A program made the position numbers and the translations under genes. Positions 271 to 45,362 of a stretch of DNA of 64,000 bases are shown here, piece after piece (positions within the stretch are counted from its first letter, which is position 1; each line of letters begins with the position of its first letter). The notes beneath the pieces are model-generated. The model was not told the DNA's origin, ran no database searches, and worked only from the letters and a program-made list of their open reading frames with translations. The DNA comes from a virus. Lineage: Duplodnaviria > Heunggongvirae > Uroviricota > Caudoviricetes. The stretch lies in the IMG/VR virus record IMGVR_UViG_3300043399_001190; one strand, written 5' to 3'.

Positions 271-346
271 GCGCCTGTGGCCAAGCGGTTAAGGCAGTGA
301 ACTCATAATTCATTGATCGGGGGTTCGAATCCCTCCGGGCGCACCA
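271..346 (+). tRNA. tRNA-Met (anticodon CAU; could alternatively be lysidine-modified tRNA-Ile2), CCA encoded
   Basis: cloverleaf read by eye: acceptor GCGCCTG/CGGGCGC, D-arm GCC..GGC, anticodon stem GTGAA/TTCAT with loop CTCATAA, T-arm GGGGG-TTCGAAT-CCCTC, discriminator A + CCA. Confidence 0.8.
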
Positions 347-3354: not shown

Positions 3355-4426
3355 TTTTTACTTCCGGTGCGTGTTTAGGAATTTTGTCTGGATTTTGTTC
3401 CCAGAACATTTTCGCTTGTTCTCCTATCTTACCCTCATAAGGGCAAGGAGTACCAGCGGCCATCATAGCATCAAACACGCGACGATCTTGGCACATGGTT
3501 GCAACAGCGGCAACCTTCATACCCATATCGTACAGAGTTTTACTAAGCTTTAAACGTTCACAGTTTAAATCTCTCACTGTTCCACCAGAACTAACACCAA
3601 AAATTTGTGTTTGTACAGCACCACTAGATCCTGTTGTACATAAGTCATTGTTTCCACCACTCATCATTGTTGGAGCAATTGCAGTAGGAGGTGGCTGAAT
3701 AACCTTCTGAGTGATTTCCGAAGTATTCAAATTGTTGTTGGTCATTGAACCACTTTGAATATTCTGATTCACATTGTTATTTGTTGAAGAACTTGTACTT
3801 GTATTATTATTGTTGTTTACATTACTGCTTGTACTTGAACTCACATTATTATTATTAAATGTCTGAGTACCAGAATTAATATTTGTATTCACGTTGTTAT
3901 TGGTGCTGGTACTGGTATTATTTGTATTCAGTGTTTGTGTACCAGAATTTACATTATAATTTGTATTACTGTTTGTACTTGTGCTTGTACTATTATTGTT
4001 GAATGTTTGAGTGCCCGAATTAATTTGATTCACGGTACTTGTGCTTGTGTTGACATTATTATTATTAAATGTCTGAGTACCAGAATTCACATTGTTATTG
4101 TTATATGTCATGGTACCTGAATTGACATTATTATTATTAAATGTCTGAGTACCAGAATTCACATTATTGTTATTGTTTGTATAAGTTACGGAACCACTCA
4201 TAACATTATTGTTGTTATTTGTTATAGTTCCATTTGTTGTAACCGTACTTGTACTAGTGCTAGTACTGTTAGTTGTGCTGGAGTTTGTAGTGTTTACTGT
4301 GCTGGTGCTAGTGGAATTATTATTAGTATCCACCAAAGTTGTCGAGTCATAGGTTGTTTGAGCAACACTAATTGATGTAATCATAGCAAAAAGCACCAAA
4401 AGCGGTGTCTTTTTGAATGACATTTT
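3287..4426 (-). CDS. secreted Asn/Ser/Thr-rich tandem-repeat protein with Cys-containing C-terminal domain
   Basis: track ORF 3287..4600 but likely start is internal MSFKKTPLLVLFAMITSISVA (signal peptide) at 4426 preceded by AAAGAGGTAAAA RBS; repeats VNSGTQTFNNNN. Confidence 0.5.
   Translation of the reverse strand, partial: KMSFKKTPLLVLFAMITSISVAQTTYDSTTLVDTNNNSTSTSTVNTTNSSTTNSTSTSTSTVTTNGTITNNNNNVMSGSVTYTNNNNNVNSGTQTFNNNNVNSGTMTYNNNNVNSGTQTFNNNNVNTSTSTVNQINSGTQTFNNNSTSTSTNSNTNYNVNSGTQTLNTNNTSTSTNNNVNTNINSGTQTFNNNNVSSSTSSNVNNNNNTSTSSSTNNNVNQNIQSGSMTNNNLNTSEITQKVIQPPPTAIAPTMMSGGNNDLCTTGSSGAVQTQIFGVSSGGTVRDLNCERLKLSKTLYDMGMKVAAVATMCQDRRVFDAMMAAGTPCPYEGKIGEQAKMFWEQNPDKIPKHAPEVKNEIYKNIGLGSLLGLVVYNLFK
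3700..4330. repeat. imperfect tandem DNA repeats (~60-66 nt units) inside the N/S/T-rich protein gene
   Basis: near-identical copies of attattattaaatgtctgagtaccagaattcacatt at ~3838, ~4059, ~4125 and related units. Confidence 0.7.
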
Positions 4427-4452
4427 TACCTCTTTCTTGCTATTTTTAGGTT

Positions 4453-4487
4453 GATATTTTCTTGGTTTATGATATAATGGAGTCTTA
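4453..4487 (+). promoter_or_regulatory. sigma70-type promoter (TTGATA-16-TATAAT) in divergent intergenic region
   Basis: ttgatattttcttggtttatgatataat read directly; sits between minus-strand block and plus-strand replication block. Confidence 0.55.
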
Positions 4488-4511
4488 TTATTTATGTCCT
4501 GGAGAAATAAA

Positions 4512-4823
4512 ATGGCAAATATTAGAGGAATTAAATTGGTAACGGGTGAGGAAGTTATTTCCGAGGTAATCATCCAGCCAGATGGTAGATTCTTACTCAA
4601 GAATCCTGTGCAGCTAAGGATGGTTCCACCACAGATTGCAGGTAGCCAGCCATCTATGGGCTTTGTTCCTTTCCCAGCCTTCGGCAGTCAAGGTGAAAAT
4701 ATATTTGTAGAACCACTACATATAGTGTACAATTACACTCCTGACGAACAAATCGTTTCAAATTACAACCAAATGTTCGGTGCAGGCATCATCACCCCAT
4801 CTAAACAAATTATAACTGGATAA
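4512..4823 (+). CDS. hypothetical protein upstream of DNA polymerase
   Basis: track ORF 4494..4823; start moved to MANIRG (GGAGA RBS); stop overlaps pol start (TAATG). Confidence 0.45.
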   Translation: MANIRGIKLVTGEEVISEVIIQPDGRFLLKNPVQLRMVPPQIAGSQPSMGFVPFPAFGSQGENIFVEPLHIVYNYTPDEQIVSNYNQMFGAGIITPSKQIITG

Positions 4824-7354
4824 TGAATTTTTACACAAACGTACAATGTATTGGCAACAACATCTTTTACCGTGGTGTTCTCGACGGTAAAAGAATCAAA
4901 ACTAAGATACCTTATCAGCCAACACTTTATGAAAAATCGAGAAGTGTGAAAAACTTCACATCACTTGAGGGCGACTATCTTATGCCCATCAAGTTTGGTT
5001 CAATTCGTGAAGCAAAAGAATACCTGAGACAGTTTGAAAATGTCTCGGGTAAAACCATTTATGGTCAAAACAGATTCGAATATGCATTTATCGGTGAACA
5101 ACATAAAGGTATGGTTGAATGGGATTTCGATCAAGTAATGATTGGCGTACTTGATATTGAGGTCGGCTCAGAAAATGGTTTCCCTGATCCTTATGAAGCA
5201 AATGAACCAATTACAGCCATTGCATTGAAATATGTTGGCGGTCACATGTTTGTTTGGGGTTGCGGAGACTATAACACAAAAGGTGATGAAAGATATCTGA
5301 AGTGTAAAGATGAATATCAACTGTTGAAGCTTTTCTTGAAATTCTGGCAAGAAAAATGTCCAGATGCACTGACTGGTTGGAACACGAAGTTCTTCGACGT
5401 GCCTTATTTGGTGAACCGCATTCGTAAAATTCTCGGTGAAGATGAAGCTAAAAAGCTTTCTCCTTGGAATATGATATCTCAAAGAGAAGCCTTTGTTATG
5501 AACCGAAAACTTGTGGTTTACGACTTGGTTGGTATCGGTGATTTTGACTACATGGAACTATACAAGTGGTATGCTCCTGGTGGTAAATCACAAGAATCGT
5601 ATCGACTAGACAACATCGCAAATGTTGAAATTGGTGAAAAGAAACTCGACTATTCTGAATATGATTCTCTACATCAACTTTACAAACTAGACTATCAAAA
5701 GTTTATTGAATATAACATCAAAGACGTTGAACTGATTCTTCGACTTGATGATAAACTGAAGTTGCTGGAACTTGGTTTGACTCTTGCTTATGATACCAAA
5801 ACAAATTACGATGATGTATTTGCACAAACACGCATGTGGGATGCACTGACATACAATCATTTGATGGAGCGTAAAATTGTTGTTCCACCAAGAATCATTA
5901 AAGAGAAAGATGCCGCTTTCGAAGGTGCTTACGTTAAAGAACCTCAAGTTGGTCAACACGAATGGGTTGCAAGTTTTGACTTGAATTCTCTGTATCCTCA
6001 CTTGATGATGCAATACAATATTTCACCAGAAACGTTGATTGAACCTGAAGATTATAATGAAGCAATGAGAGAAGTTCTTTCACAAGGTGTTTCTGTTGAA
6101 AAACTCTTGAACTGTCAAGTTGACACCTCAAGTTTGGTCAATGTAACTCTCACACCGAACGGTCAATTTTTCCGCACAGATATTCAAGGCTTTCTTCCGA
6201 AGATGATGGAAGAAATGTATGAAGATCGTAAGAAATTTAAAAAGTTGATGATTCAGGCTAAGAAAGAATACGAGGTAGAAAAAGATGCATCGAAAAAATA
6301 CGAAATTGAAAAGCGTATTGCCAGATACAACAATCTGCAACTCGCAAAAAAGGTCTCTCTCAATTCTGCTTATGGCGCTTTGGGTTCTCAGTATTTTAGA
6401 TTTTACGACCTACGGATGGCTTTGGGTGTCACTACTGCTGGCCAGTTATCTATTCGTTGGATTGAAAATGCTCTCAACAAATACATGAACGGTCTTTTGA
6501 AGACTGAAACTGATTATGTGATTGCATCGGATACTGATTCGATTTACTTGCGCCTTGGTGAATTGGTTAAAAAAGTGTATGGTACAAAAGATGGTATCTC
6601 TTTACCGAAAGAGAAAATTATCGACTTCATGGACAAAGTTTGTGAAGATAAAATTCAACCATTCATTGATAAGTCTTATAAAGAGTTGGCTGATTATGTA
6701 CATGCATTTGCACAAAAGATGCAAATGAAACGTGAAGCTTTGGCCGACAAAGGTATTTGGACTGCCAAAAAGCGTTACATCATGCATGTGTATGACAATG
6801 AGGGTGTTCGTTACTCTGAACCTGAAATGAAAGTCATGGGTTTGGAAATGATTAAGTCATCCACTCCTGCACCCGTGCGCGAGAAGATGAAAGATGCACT
6901 TCAAATTATGATGAAAGGTACAGAAAGTGATATTCACAATTTCATATCTTCATTCAAGGATGAATTTAAAAATCTTGCTGTCGAAGATATTTCTTTCCCG
7001 AGAGGTATCAACGGATTGAAAGAGTATGGTGATCGAACCACAATTTACAAAAAAGGTACACCAATTCATGTGAAAGGTGCATTACTATATAATTATTATC
7101 TACTTGAAAAAGATTTGTCAAAAAAATATCCACTGATCCAAGAAGGTGAGAAAATCAAATTTACCTATTTGAAGAAACCCAACCCCTTCAAAGATACCGT
7201 AATCTCATTTCCTGGTAGACTTCCTCCGGAATTTGACATTCAAGAATTTATCGATTATGATATGCAATTCGAAAAAACTTTCCTTGATCCGATTAAGGTT
7301 ATTTTGGATTGTATGAATTGGACAACAGAGAGAAAAAATACTCTCTTCGATTGA
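4823..7354 (+). CDS. 43: DNA polymerase, family B (T4 gp43-like) with 3'-5' exonuclease domain
   Basis: 843 aa; motifs FDLNSLYPHLM (motif A DxxSLYPS) and IASDTDSIYL (motif C YGDTDS), exo motif region; T4-like synteny with uvsX/41. Confidence 0.92.
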   Translation: MNFYTNVQCIGNNIFYRGVLDGKRIKTKIPYQPTLYEKSRSVKNFTSLEGDYLMPIKFGSIREAKEYLRQFENVSGKTIYGQNRFEYAFIGEQHKGMVEWDFDQVMIGVLDIEVGSENGFPDPYEANEPITAIALKYVGGHMFVWGCGDYNTKGDERYLKCKDEYQLLKLFLKFWQEKCPDALTGWNTKFFDVPYLVNRIRKILGEDEAKKLSPWNMISQREAFVMNRKLVVYDLVGIGDFDYMELYKWYAPGGKSQESYRLDNIANVEIGEKKLDYSEYDSLHQLYKLDYQKFIEYNIKDVELILRLDDKLKLLELGLTLAYDTKTNYDDVFAQTRMWDALTYNHLMERKIVVPPRIIKEKDAAFEGAYVKEPQVGQHEWVASFDLNSLYPHLMMQYNISPETLIEPEDYNEAMREVLSQGVSVEKLLNCQVDTSSLVNVTLTPNGQFFRTDIQGFLPKMMEEMYEDRKKFKKLMIQAKKEYEVEKDASKKYEIEKRIARYNNLQLAKKVSLNSAYGALGSQYFRFYDLRMALGVTTAGQLSIRWIENALNKYMNGLLKTETDYVIASDTDSIYLRLGELVKKVYGTKDGISLPKEKIIDFMDKVCEDKIQPFIDKSYKELADYVHAFAQKMQMKREALADKGIWTAKKRYIMHVYDNEGVRYSEPEMKVMGLEMIKSSTPAPVREKMKDALQIMMKGTESDIHNFISSFKDEFKNLAVEDISFPRGINGLKEYGDRTTIYKKGTPIHVKGALLYNYYLLEKDLSKKYPLIQEGEKIKFTYLKKPNPFKDTVISFPGRLPPEFDIQEFIDYDMQFEKTFLDPIKVILDCMNWTTERKNTLFD

Positions 7355-17494: not shown

Positions 17495-18688
17495 ATGAAA
17501 CAATTTTTGCAGTATTTGCAGGAAGAACTGGACCCGGAAGAGGGTGCCAGTAGGCAAATAAAACACCTAACACATATCGAAGATCGTATTTTGCAAACCG
17601 GAGACAAAGGTGCAAAACACGCAATTTCGTCATTGGAAACTGCGGCTGAACACATCAGTCAAGGTAAAAAGTCATCGCAACTGACAACAAAATATGACGG
17701 TTCACCAGCAATCGTTTACGGTCATCACCCAGAAAACGGTAAGTTTTTTGTTGCTTCCAAGTCAGCTTTCAACAAAACACCAAAAATCAACTATACGCCT
17801 GCCGATATAGAAAAAAACCATGGCCATGCTCCTGGCTTGGTTGAGAAGTTGAAAGCAGCACTGAAACATTTACCGAAAGTTGCACCAGAAAAAGGTGTTT
17901 ACCAGGGTGATATGATGTTCTCGGATGTAGACAAGAAACACTCAAAAGATGCCGTTTCTTTCAGACCAAATCCCTCTGGTATAACTTACACTGCACACGG
18001 TCAACATGCAACAAAAGCTAAAAAGGCCAAAATTGGTGTAGTAACTCATTTATCATATGAAGGCAAAAATTCTGCTAGTTTAAATGCATCGCACGAAGTT
18101 GACCATGAAAATTTCGGGCAACATTCTGATGTATTCTCGGTTGACCCAAGAATGGACACTTCTAAAGTACATTTCGGTCCAAAAGACAGAGCAGAATTCA
18201 AAAAACACATTGCCGCAGCTAGATCAGTTCACGATACGCACGGTGACGACATGTATGCAGGAACAAAAGCACATCAAGGTATAGGTGGTCATTTAGAGAC
18301 TTACATCAATCACACTGTTAGGAGTGATGAAGAACCTAATCATGAAAATTTTAAAAAGTGGTTGGAAAATAAGAAAAATAAAGAAATTGAAAAATTGAAG
18401 GTTGAAAAAAATAAAAAGTCCAAACAGCAAGAGTTATCAGCGGAATTAGATAAGATTGAAAGAAATAAAAAGCACTATAATAATGTTTTCAAAATGCATG
18501 GTCATTTACAAAAAGCAAAAAATGTGCTGATTAATGTTCTAAATCAACATCAAGAATTTCAACATGAACACGCTGGTGAACCAGCAAATCCTGAAGGATA
18601 CGTTTTCCATCACGGAAAAGAATCGGATAAATTTGTAAACAGAAGCGAATTCTCAAAAAGAAATTTTGCCGGAATAAGAAACATATGA
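17495..18688 (+). CDS. putative covalent nucleotidyltransferase (KxDG motif, ligase-like) with T4 CTS-like N-terminus
   Basis: N-term MKQFLQYLQE; TTKYDGSPAIVYG (KxDG), later PEGYVFHHGK; assignment by motif only. Confidence 0.45.
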   Translation: MKQFLQYLQEELDPEEGASRQIKHLTHIEDRILQTGDKGAKHAISSLETAAEHISQGKKSSQLTTKYDGSPAIVYGHHPENGKFFVASKSAFNKTPKINYTPADIEKNHGHAPGLVEKLKAALKHLPKVAPEKGVYQGDMMFSDVDKKHSKDAVSFRPNPSGITYTAHGQHATKAKKAKIGVVTHLSYEGKNSASLNASHEVDHENFGQHSDVFSVDPRMDTSKVHFGPKDRAEFKKHIAAARSVHDTHGDDMYAGTKAHQGIGGHLETYINHTVRSDEEPNHENFKKWLENKKNKEIEKLKVEKNKKSKQQELSAELDKIERNKKHYNNVFKMHGHLQKAKNVLINVLNQHQEFQHEHAGEPANPEGYVFHHGKESDKFVNRSEFSKRNFAGIRNI

Positions 18689-20586
18689 AAAAATTTCTAG
18701 AAAAAGTGGAAGACGATTTGCAAACCAAAAGCCCAGTCGTAATGGCTTTTGGTAGAATGAATCCGCCCACAGTTGGGCATGAGAAACTTGTAAACAGAGT
18801 TAAAGAAATAGCTAAAGACTATAATGCTCCACACCATGTTATAATTTCACATTCTGTTGATGCAAACAAAAATCCACTTGATGCTAAAGCAAAACTGAAA
18901 CACGCCCAGAGATTTTTTCCTGGCACAAATTTATCAACTTCCAGTAAAGAACTTCCAACTTTCTTGCAACACGCTGCAAAGTTAAATGCAGCAGGACATG
19001 ACCATTTAATTATGGTTGCAGGCTCGGATAGAATTCCAGAATATGAAAAGAAGTTGCATGATTATAATGGACCAAAAGATAAAAATCCAAAAGCACTTTT
19101 CAATTTCAAAAAAATTGAGTTGAAATCTGCGGGGCATCGTGATCCTGACTCTGAAGGTGTTGAAGGTATGTCTGCCTCAAAAATGAGGGAACATGCAAAA
19201 AATAATGATTTTCATAGCTTCAAGATGGGTGTACCTGAGCATGTGCCCGAGAAACACGCCAGAGAACTTTTCAGAGATGTTAGAAAAGGTATGGGTATAC
19301 ATGAAGATTCTAGTCATGGTTTGTTCAAAGCACTCTTCATTTGTGGTGGTCCCGGTTCCGGTAAAGATATCATCATACGTGAAGCAATTGCTGAAAGAAA
19401 CGCGGTCGAACTGAATTCAACTCTTGCAATTAATATTCTCAACGACAAACATAAGTTACATGAACAGTCTAAAGATTTCAGAAGAGAAGCTATTCGCAAA
19501 AGAATGCCGTTGATTGTAAATGGCACAACGAATGAACAATTCAATATTATTGAAATTAAAAATGAGTTGGAAGAACTCGGTTACGAAACAATGATGATTT
19601 TCGTAAACACGACAAACGAAGCTTCGAAAAAAAGAAACAATGGACATGAAAGAGTTATGTCCGAATCTGTTCGTCAAGAAAGATGGGATAAGACTCAACT
19701 TGTAGCTGAAAAAATGAATCAAATTTTTACAAAATATCTGGAATTTGATAACTCTTTGGACTTGAATGAAGCTACAATTTTCGAAATGTCGGAGAAAGAA
19801 GAAGATATAGCAATCATTTATGAAATGTCCAACTGGTTTTTCGACACTCAAGTAAACAACGAAATTGCAGAAACTTGGTTAGAAAAAAATAGAAAAAAGG
19901 ATATAAACCAAGTATTCGAATCCTTTATTAAAAATCCTTTGAAAGGTAGAAAAAATGTTTCAGAAATTAAAGCAAATCGCAAGACTATTTTTGCCGAAAG
20001 TGGATGCAAATGCAAAACATCCTTTGGATATTCAGAAGTATCAGGTAGAGGAAAACAAAAGCTCACAGACAACATCTGCCCAAGTTGCGAGCTTACTAGA
20101 AAAGCCGGTAGAGAAGACGATGTTAGAGACGGAGACACCAAATCAAACATTAGTTACACATTCAGAACCTACCACGAAGGAACAACCCCAACCATCCAAG
20201 TCAACCCAGAGCCCAAAGAAACGCGCTTCCAGCAAGACAACGACAAGCAAAAAAACAGGAAACAAAAAGCCGCACCAAGCCAAAGCGGCAAAGTAATGAA
20301 CACTGCTGGTGTTAGCCCAGAATATGATACACGCGCTCAAGGTTCTGTTTACCCAATGTCTGGTCTTGGAAATGTTACATATAGAGAACAGAAAGAGAAT
20401 AAATATACCAGTACCGCAGAGGTAACACGCAAATCGTTTGTAAAATTCAGAAAAGAATCTATTGATTCTCCAAGTGTCGAAATGGGAGTTACTGGCGGAG
20501 AATATGGTCCTTCAAACAAAGAACCGTTGGAAACTCCAGGCGATAAAGTATTGAATCAAAATTCAAATAAAAAGAAGAAAAAATGA
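18685..20586 (+). CDS. HxGH nucleotidyltransferase (NMNAT/cytidylyltransferase-like) fused to P-loop domain (GGPGSGK) and long K/T-rich low-complexity tail; CTS-like N-terminus
   Basis: MKKFLEKVED N-term; FGRMNPPTVGHEKL; LFICGGPGSGKDIII; tail rich in K,T,S,N. Confidence 0.5.
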   Translation: MKKFLEKVEDDLQTKSPVVMAFGRMNPPTVGHEKLVNRVKEIAKDYNAPHHVIISHSVDANKNPLDAKAKLKHAQRFFPGTNLSTSSKELPTFLQHAAKLNAAGHDHLIMVAGSDRIPEYEKKLHDYNGPKDKNPKALFNFKKIELKSAGHRDPDSEGVEGMSASKMREHAKNNDFHSFKMGVPEHVPEKHARELFRDVRKGMGIHEDSSHGLFKALFICGGPGSGKDIIIREAIAERNAVELNSTLAINILNDKHKLHEQSKDFRREAIRKRMPLIVNGTTNEQFNIIEIKNELEELGYETMMIFVNTTNEASKKRNNGHERVMSESVRQERWDKTQLVAEKMNQIFTKYLEFDNSLDLNEATIFEMSEKEEDIAIIYEMSNWFFDTQVNNEIAETWLEKNRKKDINQVFESFIKNPLKGRKNVSEIKANRKTIFAESGCKCKTSFGYSEVSGRGKQKLTDNICPSCELTRKAGREDDVRDGDTKSNISYTFRTYHEGTTPTIQVNPEPKETRFQQDNDKQKNRKQKAAPSQSGKVMNTAGVSPEYDTRAQGSVYPMSGLGNVTYREQKENKYTSTAEVTRKSFVKFRKESIDSPSVEMGVTGGEYGPSNKEPLETPGDKVLNQNSNKKKKK

Positions 20587-37440: not shown

Positions 37441-37579
37441 AAGTGAAATCAAAGAAATTGAAGACCGTCTGTATAGTATGTCTTGGGAAGAGTTGCAGGA
37501 AACACTGATGCATGTTGAAATGCTCGCTGCAATGAAGGCTAATAAGATTGTTTTCTCTGAATTTGATAAGGTGCAGTAA
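37430..37579 (+). CDS. small acidic protein (49 aa), below ORF-track cutoff
   Basis: ATG 37430 after AAGGAAAA; stop overlaps next gene ATG (TAATG). Confidence 0.3.
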   Translation: MLTESEIKEIEDRLYSMSWEELQETLMHVEMLAAMKANKIVFSEFDKVQ

Positions 37580-37962
37580 TGATTGACGACAGAAGTGATA
37601 AATTTTGGCACTCTTTTCATCTTTTTGAAGAAATTCTTGATGATACACAAATTGATTGTTTAGTTTATGAACTTATTAAGTTCAGACCCAACTTGGCCAA
37701 CGATCTTTATTTTGAATTAGATAAAAATTTAGTAAAAAAGACGCCTTGGCACGAAGAATTGACTAAAGTTGTGCATGAATGGGTCAATCCAACACAAAAA
37801 ACTTACGGTCCAATTACAATTGAAGATGCCAATGACGGGTCTGGCGACGGAATTCTCACTTTTCCGCCGGAATTTCTTGAGGAAACAGGCTGGAAAGAAG
37901 GAGACACGATTTCCATGGAAGTTTCCGACGACGGAAAACTAATTTTGCGAAAAAAAGACTAA
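37579..37962 (+). CDS. hypothetical protein
   Basis: ORF track. Confidence 0.45.
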   Translation: MIDDRSDKFWHSFHLFEEILDDTQIDCLVYELIKFRPNLANDLYFELDKNLVKKTPWHEELTKVVHEWVNPTQKTYGPITIEDANDGSGDGILTFPPEFLEETGWKEGDTISMEVSDDGKLILRKKD

Positions 37963-38032: not shown

Positions 38033-40255
38033 ATGCTTATCGAAGCCAAATCGAATCTTGCTCGTCTGATGGCTACGGAAAATCTGGTTGTCGAAGAACG
38101 AAACGTACAAACAGCTTATTTTGATCCGAAAAATCGAATTTTGACGGTCCCAATTCTTAACGGCGACCTTTCTTCTGAACTTTATGACCTCCTTCTTGGT
38201 CATGAAGTTGGTCATGCTTTGGAAACTCCACCTGAAGGTTGGCATGATTCTCTAGTCAAGCACAAAGTAAATAAAAGCATTCTGAATGTGTGTGAGGATG
38301 CACGTATTGAGAAAAAAATTAAACGCCGTTTTCCTGGTTTGAAACCGTCTTTTGCCAAGGGTTACCGAGAACTCTTGGAGATGGACTTCTTTGGCATTAA
38401 AGGTGTTGATGTAAATACACTCAATTTTATTGACCGAGTGAATCTGCACACAAAAGGCGGCGCATATCATGTTATTTCATTTTCCGACGAAGAAAAAGAA
38501 TTGCTGCGGGAAATTGAAAACACCGAATCCTTCGAAGAGGTTGTTGAAGTTGCATTGAAAGTGCAACAATATATGAAAGACCTGAAAGATATGGAACAAA
38601 AAGAAAAACAAGATAGCAAAAAAGGTCAAAAATCCGATTCAGCCGAAGAAGGTGAAGAGGAAGAATCTGAATCCTCAGATAAATCTTCCACCGGAAGTGG
38701 AGAAGATGACTCAGAAAATAAGATTAAACCGGATGAACTGGACGATGACTCATTGGAAATGAAAGAAGTCAACAAAGATGGATCTTCCGAGATTGATGAA
38801 AAGGGTAAAGGAAACAAAACCAAGAAATCGATGGAAGGTGGTGATGGTCCAGAATCCGACATTTCTTCGGTGACCGATCAAAAGTTCCGCGAAAAAGAAA
38901 AATCCCTTTACAACAACACAAATAAATCCGATATCATCTATTCTAACATTCCCGAGTATGATTCGGAAAAATGCATCTTTTCATATAAAGAGATTTTGCA
39001 AATTGTCGAGGAAGAAAACAAAAACTTTGTGGACAACTATACCAGGGAAAAATGTTATCGTCCCGAAGAAATGATGCAAAGTTTTGTGAAGTATAAAAAC
39101 CAATCGAATAAAGTGGTTTCGTACCTCGTCAAAGAATTTGAAATGCGTAAAAACGCAGAAAAACAAAACCGTGCTAGGACTTCCAAGACCGGTGAATTGA
39201 ACATGGATAAAATCTATGAATACAAATTAACCGATGACATTTTCAAACGTATGACTAATGTGCCCAATGGTAAATCTCATGGGCTTGTCATGTTCGTTGA
39301 CTGGTCCGGTTCTATGGACGAACACCTTGGTCCGACCGTTAAACAGCTTTTTAACTTGGTCATGTTTTGCAAGAAGGTTAACATTCCGTATGAGGTATAT
39401 GCTTTCACCTCAAATGGTATGGAAAATGTTCCACAAAGCAAACGAGTGCGTCAAAAACAAAAAGTTGGTGACCTTCAAGTGAATTTTCAATTCAATTTGC
39501 TGAATATTCTTTCCAGTAAAATGACGAATAAGGAATTCATGAAAATGGCTTCCATTCTATATTACATTGGTTGTGAAAAGCCGAGGTATGGTGGAATCAT
39601 GATTGTTCCCGAAATTCTTCGTTTGAGTGGTACTCCTCTGAATTCTGCAATTGTTGCAGCATTTGATATTGTTCCGAAGTTCAAAAAGAATAACAGACTT
39701 CAAATTGTGAATACTCTGTTTCTAACCGACGGTGAAAGCTCCATGCTTGAGGGTCGAATTAGTTTCCAAGAACGTGAAAGCAAACGTTTTGTTGTGTTGA
39801 ATGAGAATGTTCCGACGACCAGACGCCGTTGTTTCTACCGTGATCCGGTAACAAAAGCAACCGTAGAGGTTACATATCGTAATTATTCTATTTCTGGTGC
39901 AGAAACGGAAACTTTGCTGAAACTGCTGAAACAGCGTGTAGACTCCAATCTAATTGGTTTCTATGTGGCCCGTCGAAGAGACATTAACAATGCAATTAGT
40001 ATGTTTTGTTCCGATGAAAAAGAAGCTAATAAGCTTAAGCTTGAATTTCAGAAAAATGACAATACTGTCATCACAACATATGGATATGATGAATATTATA
40101 TGTTGCGTTCTGAGAGTCTGAACACCGAAGATGATGAAGATTTTGAGGTGAACAGTACAACGACACGGGGGCTTGTTAGTGCTTTTTCTAAATACACGGG
40201 TGGTAAAACATCGTCCCGTGTCATTTTGAACCGGTTCATCAAACTTATTGCATAA
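38033..40255 (+). CDS. CobT-like protein: N-terminal HExxH-containing region, acidic central stretch, C-terminal von Willebrand A domain
   Basis: LLGHEVGHALE; DSAEEGEEEESESSDKSS...; vWA MIDAS-like DWSGSM; architecture like aerobic cobaltochelatase CobT subunit homologues of marine T4-like phages. Confidence 0.6.
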   Translation: MLIEAKSNLARLMATENLVVEERNVQTAYFDPKNRILTVPILNGDLSSELYDLLLGHEVGHALETPPEGWHDSLVKHKVNKSILNVCEDARIEKKIKRRFPGLKPSFAKGYRELLEMDFFGIKGVDVNTLNFIDRVNLHTKGGAYHVISFSDEEKELLREIENTESFEEVVEVALKVQQYMKDLKDMEQKEKQDSKKGQKSDSAEEGEEEESESSDKSSTGSGEDDSENKIKPDELDDDSLEMKEVNKDGSSEIDEKGKGNKTKKSMEGGDGPESDISSVTDQKFREKEKSLYNNTNKSDIIYSNIPEYDSEKCIFSYKEILQIVEEENKNFVDNYTREKCYRPEEMMQSFVKYKNQSNKVVSYLVKEFEMRKNAEKQNRARTSKTGELNMDKIYEYKLTDDIFKRMTNVPNGKSHGLVMFVDWSGSMDEHLGPTVKQLFNLVMFCKKVNIPYEVYAFTSNGMENVPQSKRVRQKQKVGDLQVNFQFNLLNILSSKMTNKEFMKMASILYYIGCEKPRYGGIMIVPEILRLSGTPLNSAIVAAFDIVPKFKKNNRLQIVNTLFLTDGESSMLEGRISFQERESKRFVVLNENVPTTRRRCFYRDPVTKATVEVTYRNYSISGAETETLLKLLKQRVDSNLIGFYVARRRDINNAISMFCSDEKEANKLKLEFQKNDNTVITTYGYDEYYMLRSESLNTEDDEDFEVNSTTTRGLVSAFSKYTGGKTSSRVILNRFIKLIA

Positions 40256-40261
40256 TATGGA

Positions 40262-40657
40262 ATGACGACAAAGAAAAAGCAGTTTAAGGCTCACCTTATC
40301 AAGTATCGAACAAAAGATAATTCAAAGTTCCTGTGGTTCTGGGTCAACCCAGAATCCGGGTCCACTTTGTCTCCGTTTTTTCAAACACAGGAATTAGCCG
40401 AGGCTTGGTTCGATGAGATTCTTATGGTGCATAACGAAACATACAATTTAATTGATAGGGTCAAGAACGGTAAGTTTTATATGATTCGTGCAAGGGTCGA
40501 TGTGGAAGAAATGTTAACAACACCTAAAACGTTTGAGTGCCCGTTTACAATTCATCTAGAAGATGATATAATTGATGTAGAAGTTCTCGGAGTCTCTTTA
40601 GAGGACGCCAAATCGAGAGTCGAAGAATATTTTGATATTATAGAATGGATTGAATAA
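40262..40657 (+). CDS. hypothetical protein
   Basis: ORF track. Confidence 0.45.
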   Translation: MTTKKKQFKAHLIKYRTKDNSKFLWFWVNPESGSTLSPFFQTQELAEAWFDEILMVHNETYNLIDRVKNGKFYMIRARVDVEEMLTTPKTFECPFTIHLEDDIIDVEVLGVSLEDAKSRVEEYFDIIEWIE

Positions 40658-40953
40658 TGTTTGATGATATTGAATTTGAAATTAAGGAATACCCCATACA
40701 GGGTAAGATGGTCATTGGAACATATACATTATCCATGGCTGAGGCAATAAAACTTAACAACCAAATGACGGGCATGGTTGTCAAAGAAAACCTAACCCAA
40801 AAGATGGTTAATTTTATTTTGGAAAACAAGCTGGCCGAATTCACGATGCAAGAAAGCCCCGTGGATATAACCAAAACATATCGAATCCGTTGTTTCCTCA
40901 CACCAGACGATCAGGTGCGAGTGATACGTAAACTACATGATGTAAATGTATGA
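40657..40953 (+). CDS. hypothetical protein
   Basis: ORF track; ATGA overlap. Confidence 0.45.
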   Translation: MFDDIEFEIKEYPIQGKMVIGTYTLSMAEAIKLNNQMTGMVVKENLTQKMVNFILENKLAEFTMQESPVDITKTYRIRCFLTPDDQVRVIRKLHDVNV

Positions 40954-41079
40954 CTGAGGAAGAATCCAGTGAGGTCCTAGCGCGCCTCCTGCAAAAGTAT
41001 GGTGAAGACTTACCGGACCCAGAACACTATCCACAGATTTTTAGTTATTTGGTAAAACTATACCTCCGTGAATTGAGAC

Positions 41080-41661
41080 TTGAAAATGCAAACCCAATTT
41101 GACCCCTCCGCCGTATCATTTACAGTTGCTGGTAAAGCAATCAAACACCTAGCAAAACTACACCTAAACGAAAAGCTCAAGAACGTTCCATACAAACTCC
41201 GAGAATTCACAATAGCCAATTGTGTTCTTTCCGGTGGTTGTTTTGCGTCCCTTTTCCACAACGAAAAGGTCAACGACTTTGACCTCTACCTCAAAAACAT
41301 TTCCATGATAGTGGAATTAAACAACCTCCTTAAAGAATACAAAGGTTTGAATAAAGAATTGGTAGAAGAAGCTTATGCTGATGTTTTCGTAGACGGTAAA
41401 CTCACAACCATAAAAGCAGTCACCTTAGACAATAGACTACAGTATATCACTATGGTGGACTTCCAAACCGCAAAGCAAAACATGGATTATGTCCATTGTA
41501 CGGTGAGCTATGATCCGTCTAAGGATACTCTATGGCTCTCAGAACTCCAATTTGATTGCATTCAAAACAAAAAATTGGTTGCTAATAACCTAACATCAAT
41601 CACTGCTAAAAGGGGAGAAAAATTCCGTAGTAGGGGTTGGGTTTCATCATTTAGACCATGA
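41080..41661 (+). CDS. putative minimal nucleotidyltransferase (Pol-beta superfamily fold)
   Basis: VLSGGCFASLFHNEKVNDFDLYL fits hG[GS]-x(9-13)-DhDh; motif-only. Confidence 0.4.
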   Translation: MKMQTQFDPSAVSFTVAGKAIKHLAKLHLNEKLKNVPYKLREFTIANCVLSGGCFASLFHNEKVNDFDLYLKNISMIVELNNLLKEYKGLNKELVEEAYADVFVDGKLTTIKAVTLDNRLQYITMVDFQTAKQNMDYVHCTVSYDPSKDTLWLSELQFDCIQNKKLVANNLTSITAKRGEKFRSRGWVSSFRP

Positions 41662-42080
41662 AAACGATTATTGCGGGTTCCAGAGACTTCAATGATTTCG
41701 ATTACATGAAAGCATACCTTGCTACGATACCACCATGGATAGAAATCACTGAGGTCGTTTCCGGATGCGCCCAAGGTGCAGATACGCTAGGAGAGAAATG
41801 GGCAGAACTCAAAAGAATTCCAGTAAAACGCTTTCCAGCAGAATGGGAAAGACTAGGTAAGAGAGCAGGTCCAATAAGAAACGCAGAGATGGGAATCTAT
41901 GCAGAAGGGCTCATTGCTTTTTGGGACGGTAAATCCAGAGGTACACAACACATGATACTGTTCATGCAGCAGAATAATAAGTGGACCTATGTGGTACGTA
42001 CAGATATACCCTGGTGTGGTAAGTATGAAAACCGAAGCCCCGTGTTAAACAATGTAGAGTATACACAAGAGAGATTATGA
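41658..42080 (+). CDS. DUF2493 / SLOG-family (YspA-related) protein
   Basis: GSRDF..EVVSGCAQGADTLGEKWA..IPVKRFPAEWE..GKRAGPIRNAEM matches DUF2493 consensus recalled from memory. Confidence 0.65.
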   Translation: MKTIIAGSRDFNDFDYMKAYLATIPPWIEITEVVSGCAQGADTLGEKWAELKRIPVKRFPAEWERLGKRAGPIRNAEMGIYAEGLIAFWDGKSRGTQHMILFMQQNNKWTYVVRTDIPWCGKYENRSPVLNNVEYTQERL

Positions 42081-42265
42081 ACTACGTAGAATCATTCTTA
42101 ACCATATCAATATACCAACTGAACCTATTCTCATTTATGTTAGGTATGGTATATACCCTATGTAATGTGCGCTGGGGTAACCAGTCAAAACTCTGGATGC
42201 ATGTAGTGATTTACACTATGTTCGTAGCATTGTATTATTTTGCGAAGAGTAATGGTTACGTATAA
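42077..42265 (+). CDS. small hydrophobic protein
   Basis: ORF track; last plus-strand gene before GC-rich cassette. Confidence 0.4.
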   Translation: MNYVESFLTISIYQLNLFSFMLGMVYTLCNVRWGNQSKLWMHVVIYTMFVALYYFAKSNGYV

Positions 42266-42440: not shown

Positions 42441-42464
42441 CCAAAAAAGGGCGCCGAAGCGCCC
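42441..42464 (-). terminator. rho-independent terminator for the minus-strand cassette (GGGCGC-TTCG-GCGCCC + TTTTTTGG on minus strand)
   Basis: plus strand ccaaaaaagggcgccgaagcgccc; U-tract only on minus strand. Confidence 0.75.
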
Positions 42465-42486
42465 CTAAATCACTGCCAGCCCCAAC

Positions 42487-42596: not shown

Positions 42597-42818
42597 TTAG
42601 GCGATTTCTTTACGAATTTGGGACTCTTGCAATTCAGCCTGACGCTTGGCTGCGGTGCTGAGGTCTTCAGCGAGGAAAACGAGGTCATCAAAGGCCTCGC
42701 GGGCAATCTGGCGGTCGTGGGCGTGTTCAGACTTTTCCAGATCACGGGTGGCATGGAACTTGACCAGAGCCTCGGCGTAACGGATAGCGGCTTGCTCAAC
42801 GGTGTGGTTCAGAATCAT
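42597..42818 (-). CDS. small helical protein (73 aa)
   Basis: ORF track; AAGGAG RBS; promoter copy A upstream. Confidence 0.55.
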   Translation of the reverse strand: MILNHTVEQAAIRYAEALVKFHATRDLEKSEHAHDRQIAREAFDDLVFLAEDLSTAAKRQAELQESQIRKEIA

Positions 42819-42845
42819 TTGGTGCTCCTTTGTTTCAGTGGTTGG

Positions 42846-42873
42846 ATTATGGCGGATCTGGTAGGAATGGCAA
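42846..42873 (-). promoter_or_regulatory. cassette promoter copy A (TTGCCA-16-CATAAT, minus strand)
   Basis: revcomp of tggattatggcggatctggtaggaatggcaa. Confidence 0.6.
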
Positions 42874-42909
42874 CTGTATACTTTAGTATTCCACCGGAGT
42901 GGTCAACCA

Positions 42910-43091
42910 TTACTTTTCAATACGGACGCACATGGGTTTTTTAGTGGTCATTGCCGGGCGGGCATCATCCACGGCCTTGTAGAGGGCTACGGCAGCCACC
43001 TCACACTTTTCCTTGGAGGAAAACTCCGGTCCCACGCTCCAAGTGCTGGCGTGACCAAGAACAACCAAAACCCAAACAATCGTGTTCATTT
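42910..43091 (-). CDS. 59-aa protein with signal-peptide-like N-terminus (MNTIVWVLVVLGHASTWS)
   Basis: not in ORF track (below cutoff); RBS AAGGAAACGAAATG; promoter copy B upstream. Confidence 0.45.
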
Positions 43092-43118
43092 CGTTTCCTT
43101 ATCTACTATGGAATGGAT

Positions 43119-43146
43119 TATGACAGGATCCGTGGATTTGGCAACC
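43119..43146 (-). promoter_or_regulatory. cassette promoter copy B (TTGCCA-16-TCATAAT) followed by 10-bp inverted repeat CCACTCCGGT/ACCGGAGTGG
   Basis: read directly. Confidence 0.65.
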
Positions 43147-43175
43147 ACTCCGGTATTGTTGACCGGAGTGGTGGA

Positions 43176-43382
43176 TTACTTGCCATCCTCCCATGTGCCT
43201 GTAGTATAATCCACGGCTTCCGCCACCACCTCACCATCCGGACCAAACTTGGTGTAAGAATAAAAGTTTACACCAACCACCTGAGTGTAATAACCTTTGG
43301 TTTCTTCCACCACTGACATTTCCACATCATATTCCCGGAGAAGGGCATGGAGCTTTTGTTTGAATTCTTCGGTTCTGGTCAT
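43176..43382 (-). CDS. hypothetical protein (68 aa)
   Basis: ORF track; AAGGAG RBS. Confidence 0.55.
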   Translation of the reverse strand: MTRTEEFKQKLHALLREYDVEMSVVEETKGYYTQVVGVNFYSYTKFGPDGEVVAEAVDYTTGTWEDGK

Positions 43383-43409
43383 CGTGTGCTCCTTCGAATC
43401 AATGGTTGG

Positions 43410-43437
43410 ATTATGACAGAATCCGTGGATTTGGCAA
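43410..43437 (-). promoter_or_regulatory. cassette promoter copy C
   Basis: ttggattatgacagaatccgtggatttggcaacca. Confidence 0.65.
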
Positions 43438-43445
43438 CCAGTGGG

Positions 43446-43805
43446 TTACAGAAGAACCTCTAGGTCCGAGTGGTCCAGGCGGTCCTCAGCCTCAAAGGTC
43501 TCCGGTTCAAACTCCATGAGCTTGGGAGCCTTGGGTTCAGCCTTAGGCTTCGCCGCCTTCACCACCTTGGCTGGCTTGACCTCCTTACGGAGCACCACGG
43601 TATGCGGCACCGGTTCTTGAACCACCTTCACACTCTCCAGCACCTGGCCAGGCTGGCCATACTTTTTATGGAAGAATGCATCCACCTTCTGCCAGGTCTT
43701 ACGGAAGGCCTCAGCCTTACCACCATACCAGCCTTCGAAACCATTCCGATCCTTGCGGAAAACAATGGTAAAATCGGGATAACGGACTTGGGCTTTACGT
43801 GCCAT
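43446..43805 (-). CDS. hypothetical protein (119 aa), basic Lys/Pro/Ala-rich middle
   Basis: ORF track; AAGGAA RBS. Confidence 0.55.
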   Translation of the reverse strand: MARKAQVRYPDFTIVFRKDRNGFEGWYGGKAEAFRKTWQKVDAFFHKKYGQPGQVLESVKVVQEPVPHTVVLRKEVKPAKVVKAAKPKAEPKAPKLMEFEPETFEAEDRLDHSDLEVLL

Positions 43806-43834
43806 TTTTGTTCCTTTAGTGTATAATTAAGAGT

Positions 43835-43921
43835 TTAACGGAGAGCCATGGCTAGAGCCAAACCCATGGCAATGCCGGACAGGTAGGTTGTAATGAAAAT
43901 GAGATTTTGAATTTTTTCCAT
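43835..43921 (-). CDS. 28-aa hydrophobic peptide MEKIQNLIFITTYLSGIAMGLALAMALR
   Basis: AAAGGAAACCAAATG RBS; promoter copy D upstream; embedded in spurious track ORF 43835..44230. Confidence 0.4.
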   Translation of the reverse strand: MEKIQNLIFITTYLSGIAMGLALAMALR

Positions 43922-43952
43922 TTGGTTTCCTTTCTGATTTACTATGGAATGG

Positions 43953-43980
43953 ATTCTACAGGTTCTGGAAGGTTTGGCAA
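43953..43980 (-). promoter_or_regulatory. cassette promoter copy D (TTGCCA-16-TAGAAT variant)
   Basis: ggattctacaggttctggaaggtttggcaa. Confidence 0.55.
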
Positions 43981-44012
43981 CCACGGTTGGAATAGTTGAC
44001 CAATCCGGTGGA

Positions 44013-44660
44013 TTATGCGGCCACTGCCAAGCGGATGACCTTCGCCATTTTCCGACCGTGGGCGGGGTAGCCGACCACTGCCACGGACTTATCGTAGCAG
44101 GCGCGGCAGCCGTTACACTTTCCACCATGATTGTAAGCACCGCAAACCGTAACGCCAGCGGGGACCGTATCGGCATCCGGCAGGATGGTGGAGCCATGCA
44201 CACCAGCGGTGAAGGTACCATCCACGGCATCGGAAGAAAACCGAACCATTACATTGTCCAGCCTTTGCATGGCGGCGATGATGGGCTGGAATTTAGGGAA
44301 TTTTGCCATGCGGGTCGGCAACCAATGCTTAACGTGAGGAGTGCCAGCCATAACCTGGTAGATTTTCTCAGCCAGCCCCAGGCTGTACATATCGCCGGAA
44401 TCAAACCAGCGGAAATACTTGGCTTTTTTGAGGGCTTGGATCATATCAGCCACCCAGCCATCCCGCTGCCAGTCTTCCTTATTGAAGGCGCGGGGAGCCT
44501 TGACCGTGGAGAATGCATACATTCCCGTGGTGGCGTAGCATCCAGAGCAGGCGGAGACCAGTTTACCATCGGAACCAACCGAACCAGGGCATGTCTCCAA
44601 GGCTTCCAGGGACCAGGATTGGATGCCGTCAAGCTTAGAGGTTTTGGAGAGCTTTACCAT
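44013..44660 (-). CDS. Cys-motif protein (CPGS..CSGCYA), possibly phage Gp37/Gp68 (DUF5131)-like
   Basis: track ORF 44013..44723 trimmed to MVKLSK start after promoter copy E and AAGGACA RBS; family call tentative. Confidence 0.45.
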   Translation of the reverse strand: MVKLSKTSKLDGIQSWSLEALETCPGSVGSDGKLVSACSGCYATTGMYAFSTVKAPRAFNKEDWQRDGWVADMIQALKKAKYFRWFDSGDMYSLGLAEKIYQVMAGTPHVKHWLPTRMAKFPKFQPIIAAMQRLDNVMVRFSSDAVDGTFTAGVHGSTILPDADTVPAGVTVCGAYNHGGKCNGCRACYDKSVAVVGYPAHGRKMAKVIRLAVAA

Positions 44661-44691
44661 TTGGTGTCCTTGTTGCGTTACGATGGAATGG

Positions 44692-44719
44692 ATTATGACA
44701 GAACCGGAGGTTTTGGCAA
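44692..44719 (-). promoter_or_regulatory. cassette promoter copy E
   Basis: ggattatgacagaaccggaggttttggcaacca. Confidence 0.65.
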
Positions 44720-44750
44720 CCATCCTAGGATAGTTGACCGGAAAAGGAGG

Positions 44751-44975
44751 TTATTCCTCCTCAGCCTCTTCCTCTTCCTCAAAGTGTTCCAGAAGTTGGT
44801 CCCAATCCACGGCGGAGAGGTTGACCATGTCCTTCAGGGGACCATCCGGCATATCGTCATATTGTTCCTCCAGCATGTAGCGGATGGACTCTACATCCTC
44901 ACGGGATTCCGGATTGCACCAGACATTGACCAACCAGGTTTCGCGGTTGGTCCAGCCATTGTAACCTTGAGACAT
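44751..44975 (-). CDS. small Trp-rich protein with poly-Glu C-terminal tail (EEEEEAEEE)
   Basis: ORF track; RBS AAAGGAAACGAAAATG; promoter copy F upstream. Confidence 0.55.
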   Translation of the reverse strand: MSQGYNGWTNRETWLVNVWCNPESREDVESIRYMLEEQYDDMPDGPLKDMVNLSAVDWDQLLEHFEEEEEAEEE

Positions 44976-45003
44976 TTTCGTTTCCTTTCAAACTATGGAA
45001 TGG

Positions 45004-45031
45004 ATTATGACAGAATCCGTGGAGATGGCAA
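45004..45031 (-). promoter_or_regulatory. cassette promoter copy F
   Basis: ggattatgacagaatccgtggagatggcaaca. Confidence 0.65.
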
Positions 45032-45034
45032 CAA

Positions 45035-45163
45035 TTATTTGGTTCTGATTTTAAGATAGAACCGTCCATTGTGGACGTATCCGCGGAGGAGACCAGGCAG
45101 CCCGTATTCCTTAGCCATGGCTCGCATGGCTTGGTAGTGGTTGGTTTTGTGTTTTTTCATCAT
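45035..45163 (-). CDS. 42-aa very basic peptide MMKKHKTNHYQAMRAMAKEYGLPGLLRGYVHNGRFYLKIRTK (possibly leaderless)
   Basis: track ORF 45035..45217 trimmed because its 5' part is the promoter repeat; ATG 7-10 nt after -10. Confidence 0.3.
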   Translation of the reverse strand: MMKKHKTNHYQAMRAMAKEYGLPGLLRGYVHNGRFYLKIRTK

Positions 45164-45170
45164 GGAATGA

Positions 45171-45198
45171 AGTGTAGCAGAGCCAGAGGATTTGGCAA
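45171..45198 (-). promoter_or_regulatory. cassette promoter copy G (degenerate -10 TACACT)
   Basis: ggaatgaagtgtagcagagccagaggatttggcaacca. Confidence 0.4.
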
Positions 45199-45362
45199 CC
45201 ATCTGGAAATGACCCACCGGATCGGTCGGGTACTGGTTGCCGGGGGTTCGGATTGTGGTATAATAGACTCATTCGAAAGCGGGACTGGGGTGGACACGGA
45301 GGCTGCGCGTCATTCCGCACTGTAATACTTCCGTACTACCGCCGGCGGAAGACGTTTGGACC

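Follow-up and report, generated by a model that had tools for sequence, protein, structure and literature searches.

A short Gad2-family nucleotidyltransferase gene and an adjoining SLOG gene of a marine T4-like myovirus are best read as separable accessory genes

The window analyzed here, a stretch of viral DNA of 64,000 nt, is part of a 179-kb public contig. Its family B DNA polymerase is 50% identical to cyanomyovirus polymerases, and a DnaB-like helicase, a ribonucleotide reductase, and an RNase H are also encoded. The locus is thus phage-borne, as originally predicted, and belongs to a T4-like myovirus. The two genes under study, ORF1 and ORF2, lie at the 3' end of a long plus-strand block of replication and nucleotide-metabolism genes (Table 1). 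They are members of a string of six genes (positions 40262 to 42265) in which all five junctions overlap, by 1, 4, 17, 4, and 4 nt; the 17-nt overlap is that of the 50-aa upstream ORF with the start of ORF1. The original prediction described ORF1 and ORF2 as a translationally coupled pair. The 4-nt ATGA overlap between them is real, but it is no special mark of this pair, because every junction in the string overlaps. The three upstream ORFs had no match in Pfam, PHROG, or PADLOC. A terminator-like hairpin separates the plus-strand string from a convergent minus-strand block of small genes. A megablast search of the locus against isolated phages returned no match.

Table 1. Coordinates of the genes and sequence features at the locus
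Feature	Position (nt)	Strand	Basis or remark
Three small upstream ORFs (131, 98, and 50 aa)	40262..41102	+	Same overlapping gene string; syntenic in related contigs
ORF1, predicted short-form Gad2-family (PF26128) Pol-beta-fold nucleotidyltransferase, 191 aa	41086..41661	+	Likely start ATG 41086
NTase motif G50-G51-x12-D64-F-D66 (GGT GGT ... GAC TTT GAC); in full S-G50-G51-CFASLFHNEKVN-D64-F-D66-L	41233..41283	+	Read from sequence
D134 codon, third invariant carboxylate (M-D-Y-V-H-C; Gad2 counterpart F-D-F-T-V-C)	41485..41487	+	Family alignments
ATGA start/stop overlap of ORF1 and ORF2 (ORF1 TGA 41659-41661, ORF2 ATG 41658-41660; ...CCATGAAA...)	41658..41661	+	
ORF2, stand-alone YAcAr/DUF2493 SLOG domain, 140 aa, with clade-specific C-terminal tail (about residues 115-140)	41658..42080	+	PF10686, phrog_289, AF2, Foldseek
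Hydrophobic downstream ORF, 62 aa	42077..42265	+	Overlaps ORF2 by 4 nt; last gene of the plus-strand string
Terminator-like G+C-rich hairpin and T-run	42447..42466	-	8-bp stem, 6 G-C pairs

The reading frame of ORF1 is open from a TTG codon at position 41080, where the gene had originally been placed. The plus-strand ORF was confirmed, but its likely start shifts to the ATG six nucleotides downstream, since public gene calls and 26 of 26 homologues begin at this methionine. The motif had been given as hGG-x12-DFDL. GG-x12-DFD is indeed present, but the residue preceding the two glycines is serine and not hydrophobic. By itself, the motif is not significant: when the window's 702 six-frame ORFs were scanned for G[GS]-x9-13-D-h-[DE]-h, one match was obtained, against an expectation of 0.8 from shuffled ORFs. 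It becomes convincing because none of G50, G51, D64, D66, and D134 varies among 21 homologues (36 to 81% identity) and because the modeled fold is that of a nucleotidyltransferase (NTase). With the core fold, the hG[GS]-x9-13-Dh[DE]h motif, and a third carboxylate, ORF1 displays the features by which the Pol-beta superfamily is recognized.

Gad2 (Gabija anti-defence 2) is a protein of about 400 aa with an NTase domain predicted by AlphaFold. Knockout of Gad2 rendered the Bacillus phage SPbetaL7 sensitive to Gabija, and a homologue from a Brevibacillus laterosporus prophage cancelled Gabija defence; the anti-Gabija effect has been demonstrated only for these two proteins (10.1101/2023.05.01.538930). 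Precomputed matches to PF26128 ("Gad2") with E <= 1e-5 cover ORF1 and all 26 homologues retrieved from a large protein database, which are 36 to 100% identical to ORF1 and all about 180 to 197 aa long. In a BLASTP comparison, ORF1 residues 48 to 185 aligned with residues 29 to 161 of the verified Brevibacillus Gad2 (E 5e-7, 27% identity over 147 residues). Alignment by hhalign of a 21-homologue ORF1 profile with an 8-homologue Gad2 profile covered Gad2 positions 2 to 167 (probability 98.1%, E 7e-14). The Gad2 set (n=8) was drawn from Supplementary Table 10 of the Gad2 authors and comprised seven homologues in addition to the verified Brevibacillus protein. In this alignment, G50, G51, D64, D66, and D134 of ORF1 correspond to G31, G32, D45, D47, and D107, which are invariant in the eight Gad2 homologues, and the C-terminal signature R-x2-K-[FY]-x2-[RK]-G-[WY] is common to both families. 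In the Nature version of the Gad2 paper, active-site mutations reportedly abolish Gad2 function.

The PF26128 matches, the BLASTP and profile alignments, and the shared invariant residues together indicate that ORF1 is the N-terminal NTase domain of Gad2, about 170 aa, standing alone. The original label of a minimal NTase-like protein holds with respect to the fold and the intact catalytic triad, but the protein is not unclassified and falls into an already described family. ORF1 and the SPbetaL7 and Brevibacillus proteins share a homologous NTase domain with GG-x12-DxD, the FDF/MDY element, and the C-terminal signature, and all are phage-encoded. Unlike Gad2, however, ORF1 has only 191 aa, is no more than 27% identical, and comes from a marine T4-like myovirus instead of a Firmicutes siphovirus or prophage. 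The full-length architecture is not present, as the C-terminal half of Gad2 (~230 aa) is missing from ORF1. When the C-terminal domain was sought as a separate ORF in the window with the Gad2 profile, it was absent, and no other ORF of the window matched. Since this half is missing, the anti-Gabija activity of full-length Gad2 may not carry over to ORF1. Local Pfam, NCBIfam, and PADLOC scans gave no match for ORF1; the empty Pfam scan is explained by a Pfam copy without the PF26128 model, in which the verified BlGad2 was also unmatched. The PHROG matches of ORF1 were to families of unknown function only.

The short form makes up a large family. A profile search of 1.84 billion representatives of 50%-identity clusters returned 2,382 hits at E <= 1e-3, including 108 at E <= 1e-30, and nearly all of the best 150 of these 2,382 hits were 180 to 230 aa long. 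In isolated phages, the detectable relatives of ORF1 are N-terminal domains of proteins of 315 to 450 aa. Gad2 homologues of 214, 228, and 278 aa were already contained in the list of the Gad2 authors (10.1101/2023.05.01.538930).

An AlphaFold2 model of ORF1 built on the family alignment reached a mean pLDDT of 88.7 and a pTM of 0.84. In a Foldseek search of this model against the PDB, the first 22 places were taken by class II CCA-adding enzymes, A-adding enzymes, and Escherichia coli poly(A) polymerase I (best E value in this group, 8e-5, probability 1.00), with FAM46/TENT5 following thereafter. In structural comparison, the highest score was that of poly(A) polymerase I (PAP I; 3aql) with 11.2, followed by A-/CCA-adding enzymes (8.4 to 10.2), FAM46B (8.3), and a stand-alone 191-aa "CCA-adding enzyme head domain" protein (2la3; 7.4). 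Scores for cGAS/DncV-like cyclases were 4.9 or less, and those for MenT and the HEPN-associated minimal NTase HI0073 were 4.6 and 3.6, respectively. The model and the comparison confirm the predicted NTase fold, whose absence was to count against the original prediction, and they indicate a fold of the polynucleotide 3'-end-adding type, not of the cyclic-messenger type. The nearest structural relatives are the head domains of class II tRNA nucleotidyltransferases and PAP I (3aql, 3wfo, 4wby, 1miv, and 5hc9) and TENT5/FAM46. These relatives are 10 to 16% identical to ORF1, with no detectable sequence similarity. Solved relatives were also sought in the PDB by sequence, using ORF1, the family profile, the Gad2 profile, and a short Streptococcus homologue, and none were found. 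CD-NTases that operate with a SLOG-, SAVED-, or CARF-type sensor belong to the same broad Pol-beta superfamily, but the cGAS/DncV-like fold was not the class closest to ORF1. Such systems combine an NTase with a Rossmannoid ligand-binding domain, and their likeness to ORF1 and ORF2 is superficial.

The assignment of ORF2 to the DUF2493/SLOG group stood up well. The protein matched PF10686 (YAcAr) with an E value of 1.9e-12 and 47.3 bits, above the gathering cutoff of 28.2, over model positions 1 to 65 of 66, and phrog_289 with an E value of 8e-28. The DUF2493 strings quoted originally (SGCAQGADTLGEKWA...RFPAEWE...GPIRNAEM) are present, and the AlphaFold2 model (pLDDT 94.7) shows the alternating beta-alpha units of a SLOG fold. 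A profile match above threshold and a Rossmannoid fold thus place ORF2 in the YAcAr/DUF2493 family, part of the YpsA-like SLOG clade, whose members include the mycobacteriophage D29 gp61-like proteins and a phiEco32 "GTP-binding domain" protein. ORF2 covers the full length of the family model, but the family at large lacks its C-terminal tail of about 25 aa, which is common only to the closest marine homologues. Among 50,697 phage records, 1,239 contain relatives of ORF2, ranging from phages of Mycobacterium to those of Escherichia and Vibrio. Clusters of related proteins number over 3,370, and many isolated phages encode proteins that are 50 to 63% identical to ORF2. The nearest solved structures by Foldseek were ShosA (8zva, E 2e-4) and DprA (3uqz and 4ljl), with E values of 2e-4 to 4e-3, TM scores of 0.55 to 0.66, and 17% identity; the SLOG domain of ThsA ranked lower (E 0.03 to 0.05). 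ShosA is the antitoxin of the defence system ShosTA, but despite the close fold neither a ShosT-like partner nor a PADLOC hit is present here. A literature search for an experimental function of stand-alone phage DUF2493/YAcAr proteins yielded only annotation mentions, reports of fusions, and comparative-genomic predictions. The SLOG protein was also considered as a replacement for the missing C-terminal domain of Gad2. The two are unrelated (hhalign probability 0.3%), and a simple gene fission is therefore excluded.

The distribution of the two genes was followed in related contigs, which share a gene order of RNase H, DUF6433, a protein of 697 to 750 aa, and then small ORFs. Both genes occupy this slot in the window and in L049, L009, L010, L053, and L135/136. 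In L049, the ORF1 homologue is 81% identical and has the same 4-nt overlap with the SLOG gene, and in the other four cases an ORF of ~60 aa lies between the two genes. The slot contains the Gad2-like gene only in L007/8, L050/51, and L052, and the SLOG gene only in L134 and L137. The SLOG proteins of these last two loci are the closest to ORF2 (76 to 78% identity), and an Rv2179c-like exoribonuclease is encoded nearby. Of the 11 distinct loci in this phage clade, about 6 carry both genes.

An HMM scan of the fetched loci detected a SLOG gene in the flank of 8 of 53 Gad2-anchored loci. Seven of these belong to the clade of the window; the eighth, L035, carries its SLOG gene 2 kb away and is the only one with a SLOG gene among about 35 distinct Gad2-like loci outside the clade. 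The remaining loci (about 45 of 53) lacked a SLOG gene, and they include every long form except L035. Conversely, a Gad2-like gene accompanied only one of 80 SLOG-anchored viral loci. This was L067, an unrelated 162-kb viral contig in which the order is reversed, with the SLOG gene at 4001 to 4348 and a gene for a 230-aa NTase with GG-x12-DVD at 4352 to 5044. The SLOG/DUF2493 domain occurs in 7 to 31% of phages (PMC9503650), and by a rough, informal estimate, so common a domain would be expected to come to lie beside the other gene about once or twice independently by chance. This distribution is not that of a conserved two-gene module, in which the pair would recur across unrelated genomes and neither gene would commonly be found alone. 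ORF1 and ORF2 are best read as separable accessory genes in a variable slot, probably with roles in counter-defence. Each belongs to a known family, and the pair is not a new system.

We therefore favor, with moderate confidence, the view that this marine T4-like myovirus carries two separate accessory genes at the locus, one for a catalytically competent short Gad2-family NTase serving counter-defence and the other for a stand-alone SLOG protein. The best explanation of the data is that neither protein depends on the other. Both genes would be expressed within the string of six overlapping genes. ORF1 would use an NTP to attach a nucleoside monophosphate to a free hydroxyl group, most probably at an RNA or DNA 3' end, because its nearest structural relatives are the head domains of PAP I, class II CCA- and A-adding enzymes, and TENT5. 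By analogy with the action of full-length Gad2 against Gabija, it may serve as a counter-defence enzyme early or mid infection, modifying an end or a nucleic acid that is recognized by a defence system. A review from February 2026 lists the mechanism of Gad2 as unknown and names RecBCD inhibition and DNA-end sensing as triggers of Gabija (PMC12904381), which makes end modification a reasonable hypothesis. The short form may have a target other than that of Gad2, since the C-terminal half is missing. The most likely binding partner of ORF2 is a nucleotide-type ligand or single-stranded nucleic acid; at present there are two views of it, as a processor of ADP-ribose signals or as a DprA-like DNA binder. 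The enzymatic activity, the acceptor substrate, the role in counter-defence, and the ligand of ORF2 are thus what we infer from these comparisons.

The second of these views leads to an alternative that we hold only tentatively, in which ORF2 would be an accessory factor of replication or recombination. As a minimal Rossmann domain resembling that of DprA, it would bind single-stranded DNA and assist in loading a recombinase or helicase. ORF2 sits at the end of the replication module, and its closest solved structures are DprA and ShosA, itself DprA-like, with the ThsA match being weaker. In addition, some homologues match the DprA Pfam family PF02481, and depositors often name the relatives of ORF2 DNA processing or recombination-mediator proteins. 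DUF2493 is also found fused to an SF1B helicase in HelB of ICP1 (10.1101/671271) and to DciA in Streptomyces (10.1101/2022.01.24.477630), but Aravind's group takes the same fusions as ligand-regulated DNA enzymes (PMC9503650). Moreover, the likeness to DprA amounts to 17% identity and a similar Rossmann fold, as ORF2 is a bare domain without the SAM and winged-helix domains that flank it in DprA. The ORF2 gene is also dispensable among close relatives, which would be unusual for a core replication factor.

It is unlikely that ORF1 acts on RNA 3' ends without any connection to Gabija, its membership in the Gad2 family then reflecting shared ancestry and not function. Such an enzyme would act in tRNA repair or tailing in the manner of a CCA-adding or poly(A) polymerase head domain, restoring tRNAs damaged by host nucleases or marking host RNAs for decay. 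The Rv2179c-like 3'-5' exoribonuclease (PF16473) in the same variable slot of related phages suggests an island of RNA-end enzymes, and the lack of the C-terminal half of verified Gad2 would be compatible with a different role. However, ORF1 had no match to the Pfam family of class II tRNA nucleotidyltransferases and PAP at E <= 1, and only the head domain of 137 to 150 residues aligns with these enzymes. The neck, body, and tail domains, by which CCA-adding enzymes select the nucleotide and hold the tRNA, are absent from the 191-aa protein, whereas the similarity of ORF1 to Gad2, both in sequence and in profile, is direct.

The original prediction had combined the two genes into a dedicated two-component module for nucleotide signaling or anti-signaling, in which the NTase would make or modify a nucleotide-derived molecule and the SLOG protein would bind, sequester, or degrade it, for instance against Thoeris, CBASS, or type III CRISPR. 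We now consider this improbable. The adjoining genes with their ATGA overlap, retained in L049, the joint occurrence in about six of 11 clade loci, sometimes with the ~60-aa ORF between, and the pairs in L067 and, at 2 kb, in L035 speak for such a module, as does the prediction from comparative genomics by Iyer et al. (2022) that immune signals derived from ADP-ribose are sensed or degraded by the SLOG domains of viruses (PMC9503650). Against it, the genes are separable in both directions. Either one stands alone in the same syntenic slot, 79 of 80 SLOG loci have no Gad2-like gene, and the pair recurs within one clade only, so that the failure to co-occur elsewhere, which was named at the outset as a reason to abandon the idea, has largely been observed. 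Overlaps of 4 nt are usual throughout the gene string, and the nearest folds of ORF1 are end-adding enzymes and not cyclases. Gabija, the only known target of the Gad2 family, is a nuclease/helicase system that uses no messenger (10.1101/2023.05.01.538930; PMC12904381). A facultative two-part counter-defence unit, in which the NTase would nucleotidylate a nucleic-acid end or small molecule and the SLOG protein would recognize or process the product, having arisen at least twice (in the clade of the window and, reversed, in L067), appears more doubtful still, although such cooperation, if true, would reveal the mechanism of Gad2 and the function of the common phage DUF2493 domain together.

Three aspects of the locus add to what was known. 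The catalytic domain of Gad2 forms a large stand-alone family of proteins of about 190 aa in marine (T4-like) phages, with more than 2,000 clusters at 50% identity; the predicted fold of ORF1 points to end-adding enzymes and away from cyclases; and the NTase gene can occur without the SLOG gene, and vice versa. The anti-Gabija action of Gad2 itself is proven, and DUF2493 is among the commonest uncharacterized domains of phages. ORF1 is small and probably well behaved, which would make it suitable for biochemistry. Taken together, the stand-alone family and its modeled fold narrow the hypotheses on Gad2 toward end modification and away from messenger synthesis.

The pairing of a YAcAr SLOG gene with a Gad2-like nucleotidyltransferase (NTase) was also found in L067, a viral contig unrelated to the window phage. 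Here, the NTase, which carries the motifs GG-x12-DVD and FDYEH, begins 4 nt after the SLOG gene, and the order of the two genes is the opposite of that in the window, where the NTase precedes the SLOG gene. An hmmscan search against the Pfam-A copy used returned zero matches for both ORF1 (41086-41661), the short-form Gad2-family NTase of the window, and the verified Gad2 (Gabija anti-defence 2), because this copy does not contain PF26128; the family is present in the precomputed annotations of a large protein database.

At the syntenic position of the pair in related phages, the variable slot, the SLOG gene lies near an exoribonuclease gene in three contigs. Both genes occur with and without the Gad2-like NTase. 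The SLOG protein may have a general association with RNA-end enzymes. Alternatively, the variable slot may be a mere collecting site for accessory genes.

Features of the window and of related or comparison contigs
Feature	Contig	Position	Strand	Details
tRNA-Met (CAT)	window	271-346	+	sole tRNA gene in window
397-aa gene	window	17495-18688	+	phrog_455; directly precedes 633-aa protein gene
633-aa protein	window	18685-20586	+	N-terminal cytidyltransferase-like domain, phrog_3041, E 2e-61
127-aa protein	window	37579-37962	+	MazE_antitoxin (SpoVT/AbrB-like, PF04014) match
740-aa protein	window	38033-40255	+	phrog_459 ('peptidase'), full-length match, E 3e-211
~57-nt repeated element	window	42800-45200	minus	6-7 copies
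Rv2179c-like 3'-5' exoribonuclease (PF16473)	L009	7424-8002		variable slot, near YAcAr SLOG gene
Rv2179c-like 3'-5' exoribonuclease (PF16473)	L134	2814-3401		variable slot, near YAcAr SLOG gene
Rv2179c-like 3'-5' exoribonuclease (PF16473)	L137	2545-3132		variable slot, near YAcAr SLOG gene
YAcAr SLOG (115 aa) + Gad2-like NTase (230 aa)	L067	4001-5044		IMGVR_UViG_3300019458_000024, 162 kb

The 633-aa protein is the product of a second nucleotidyltransferase-type gene in the replication block and is unrelated to ORF1; it also has a region in common with the preceding gene. A counterpart of the 740-aa protein, 697 to 750 aa in length, is kept in all syntenic contigs. This protein had no match in the Pfam scan and contains a long, acidic, Ser/Lys-rich low-complexity insert (approximately residues 190 to 290). 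No obvious toxin partner was annotated among the neighbors of the MazE_antitoxin protein.

Small minus-strand genes converge with the replication block in a region with a G+C content of 0.47, versus about 0.36 to 0.39 in the remainder. Each copy of the repeated element, which includes …GTTGCCAAATCCACGGATYCTGTCATAATCCATTCCATAG… (minus-strand reading), sits upstream of such a gene and holds a sigma-70-like TTGCCA-N16-CATAAT. The repeats look like a set of early promoters for these genes. The tRNA-Met gene might aid host assignment.
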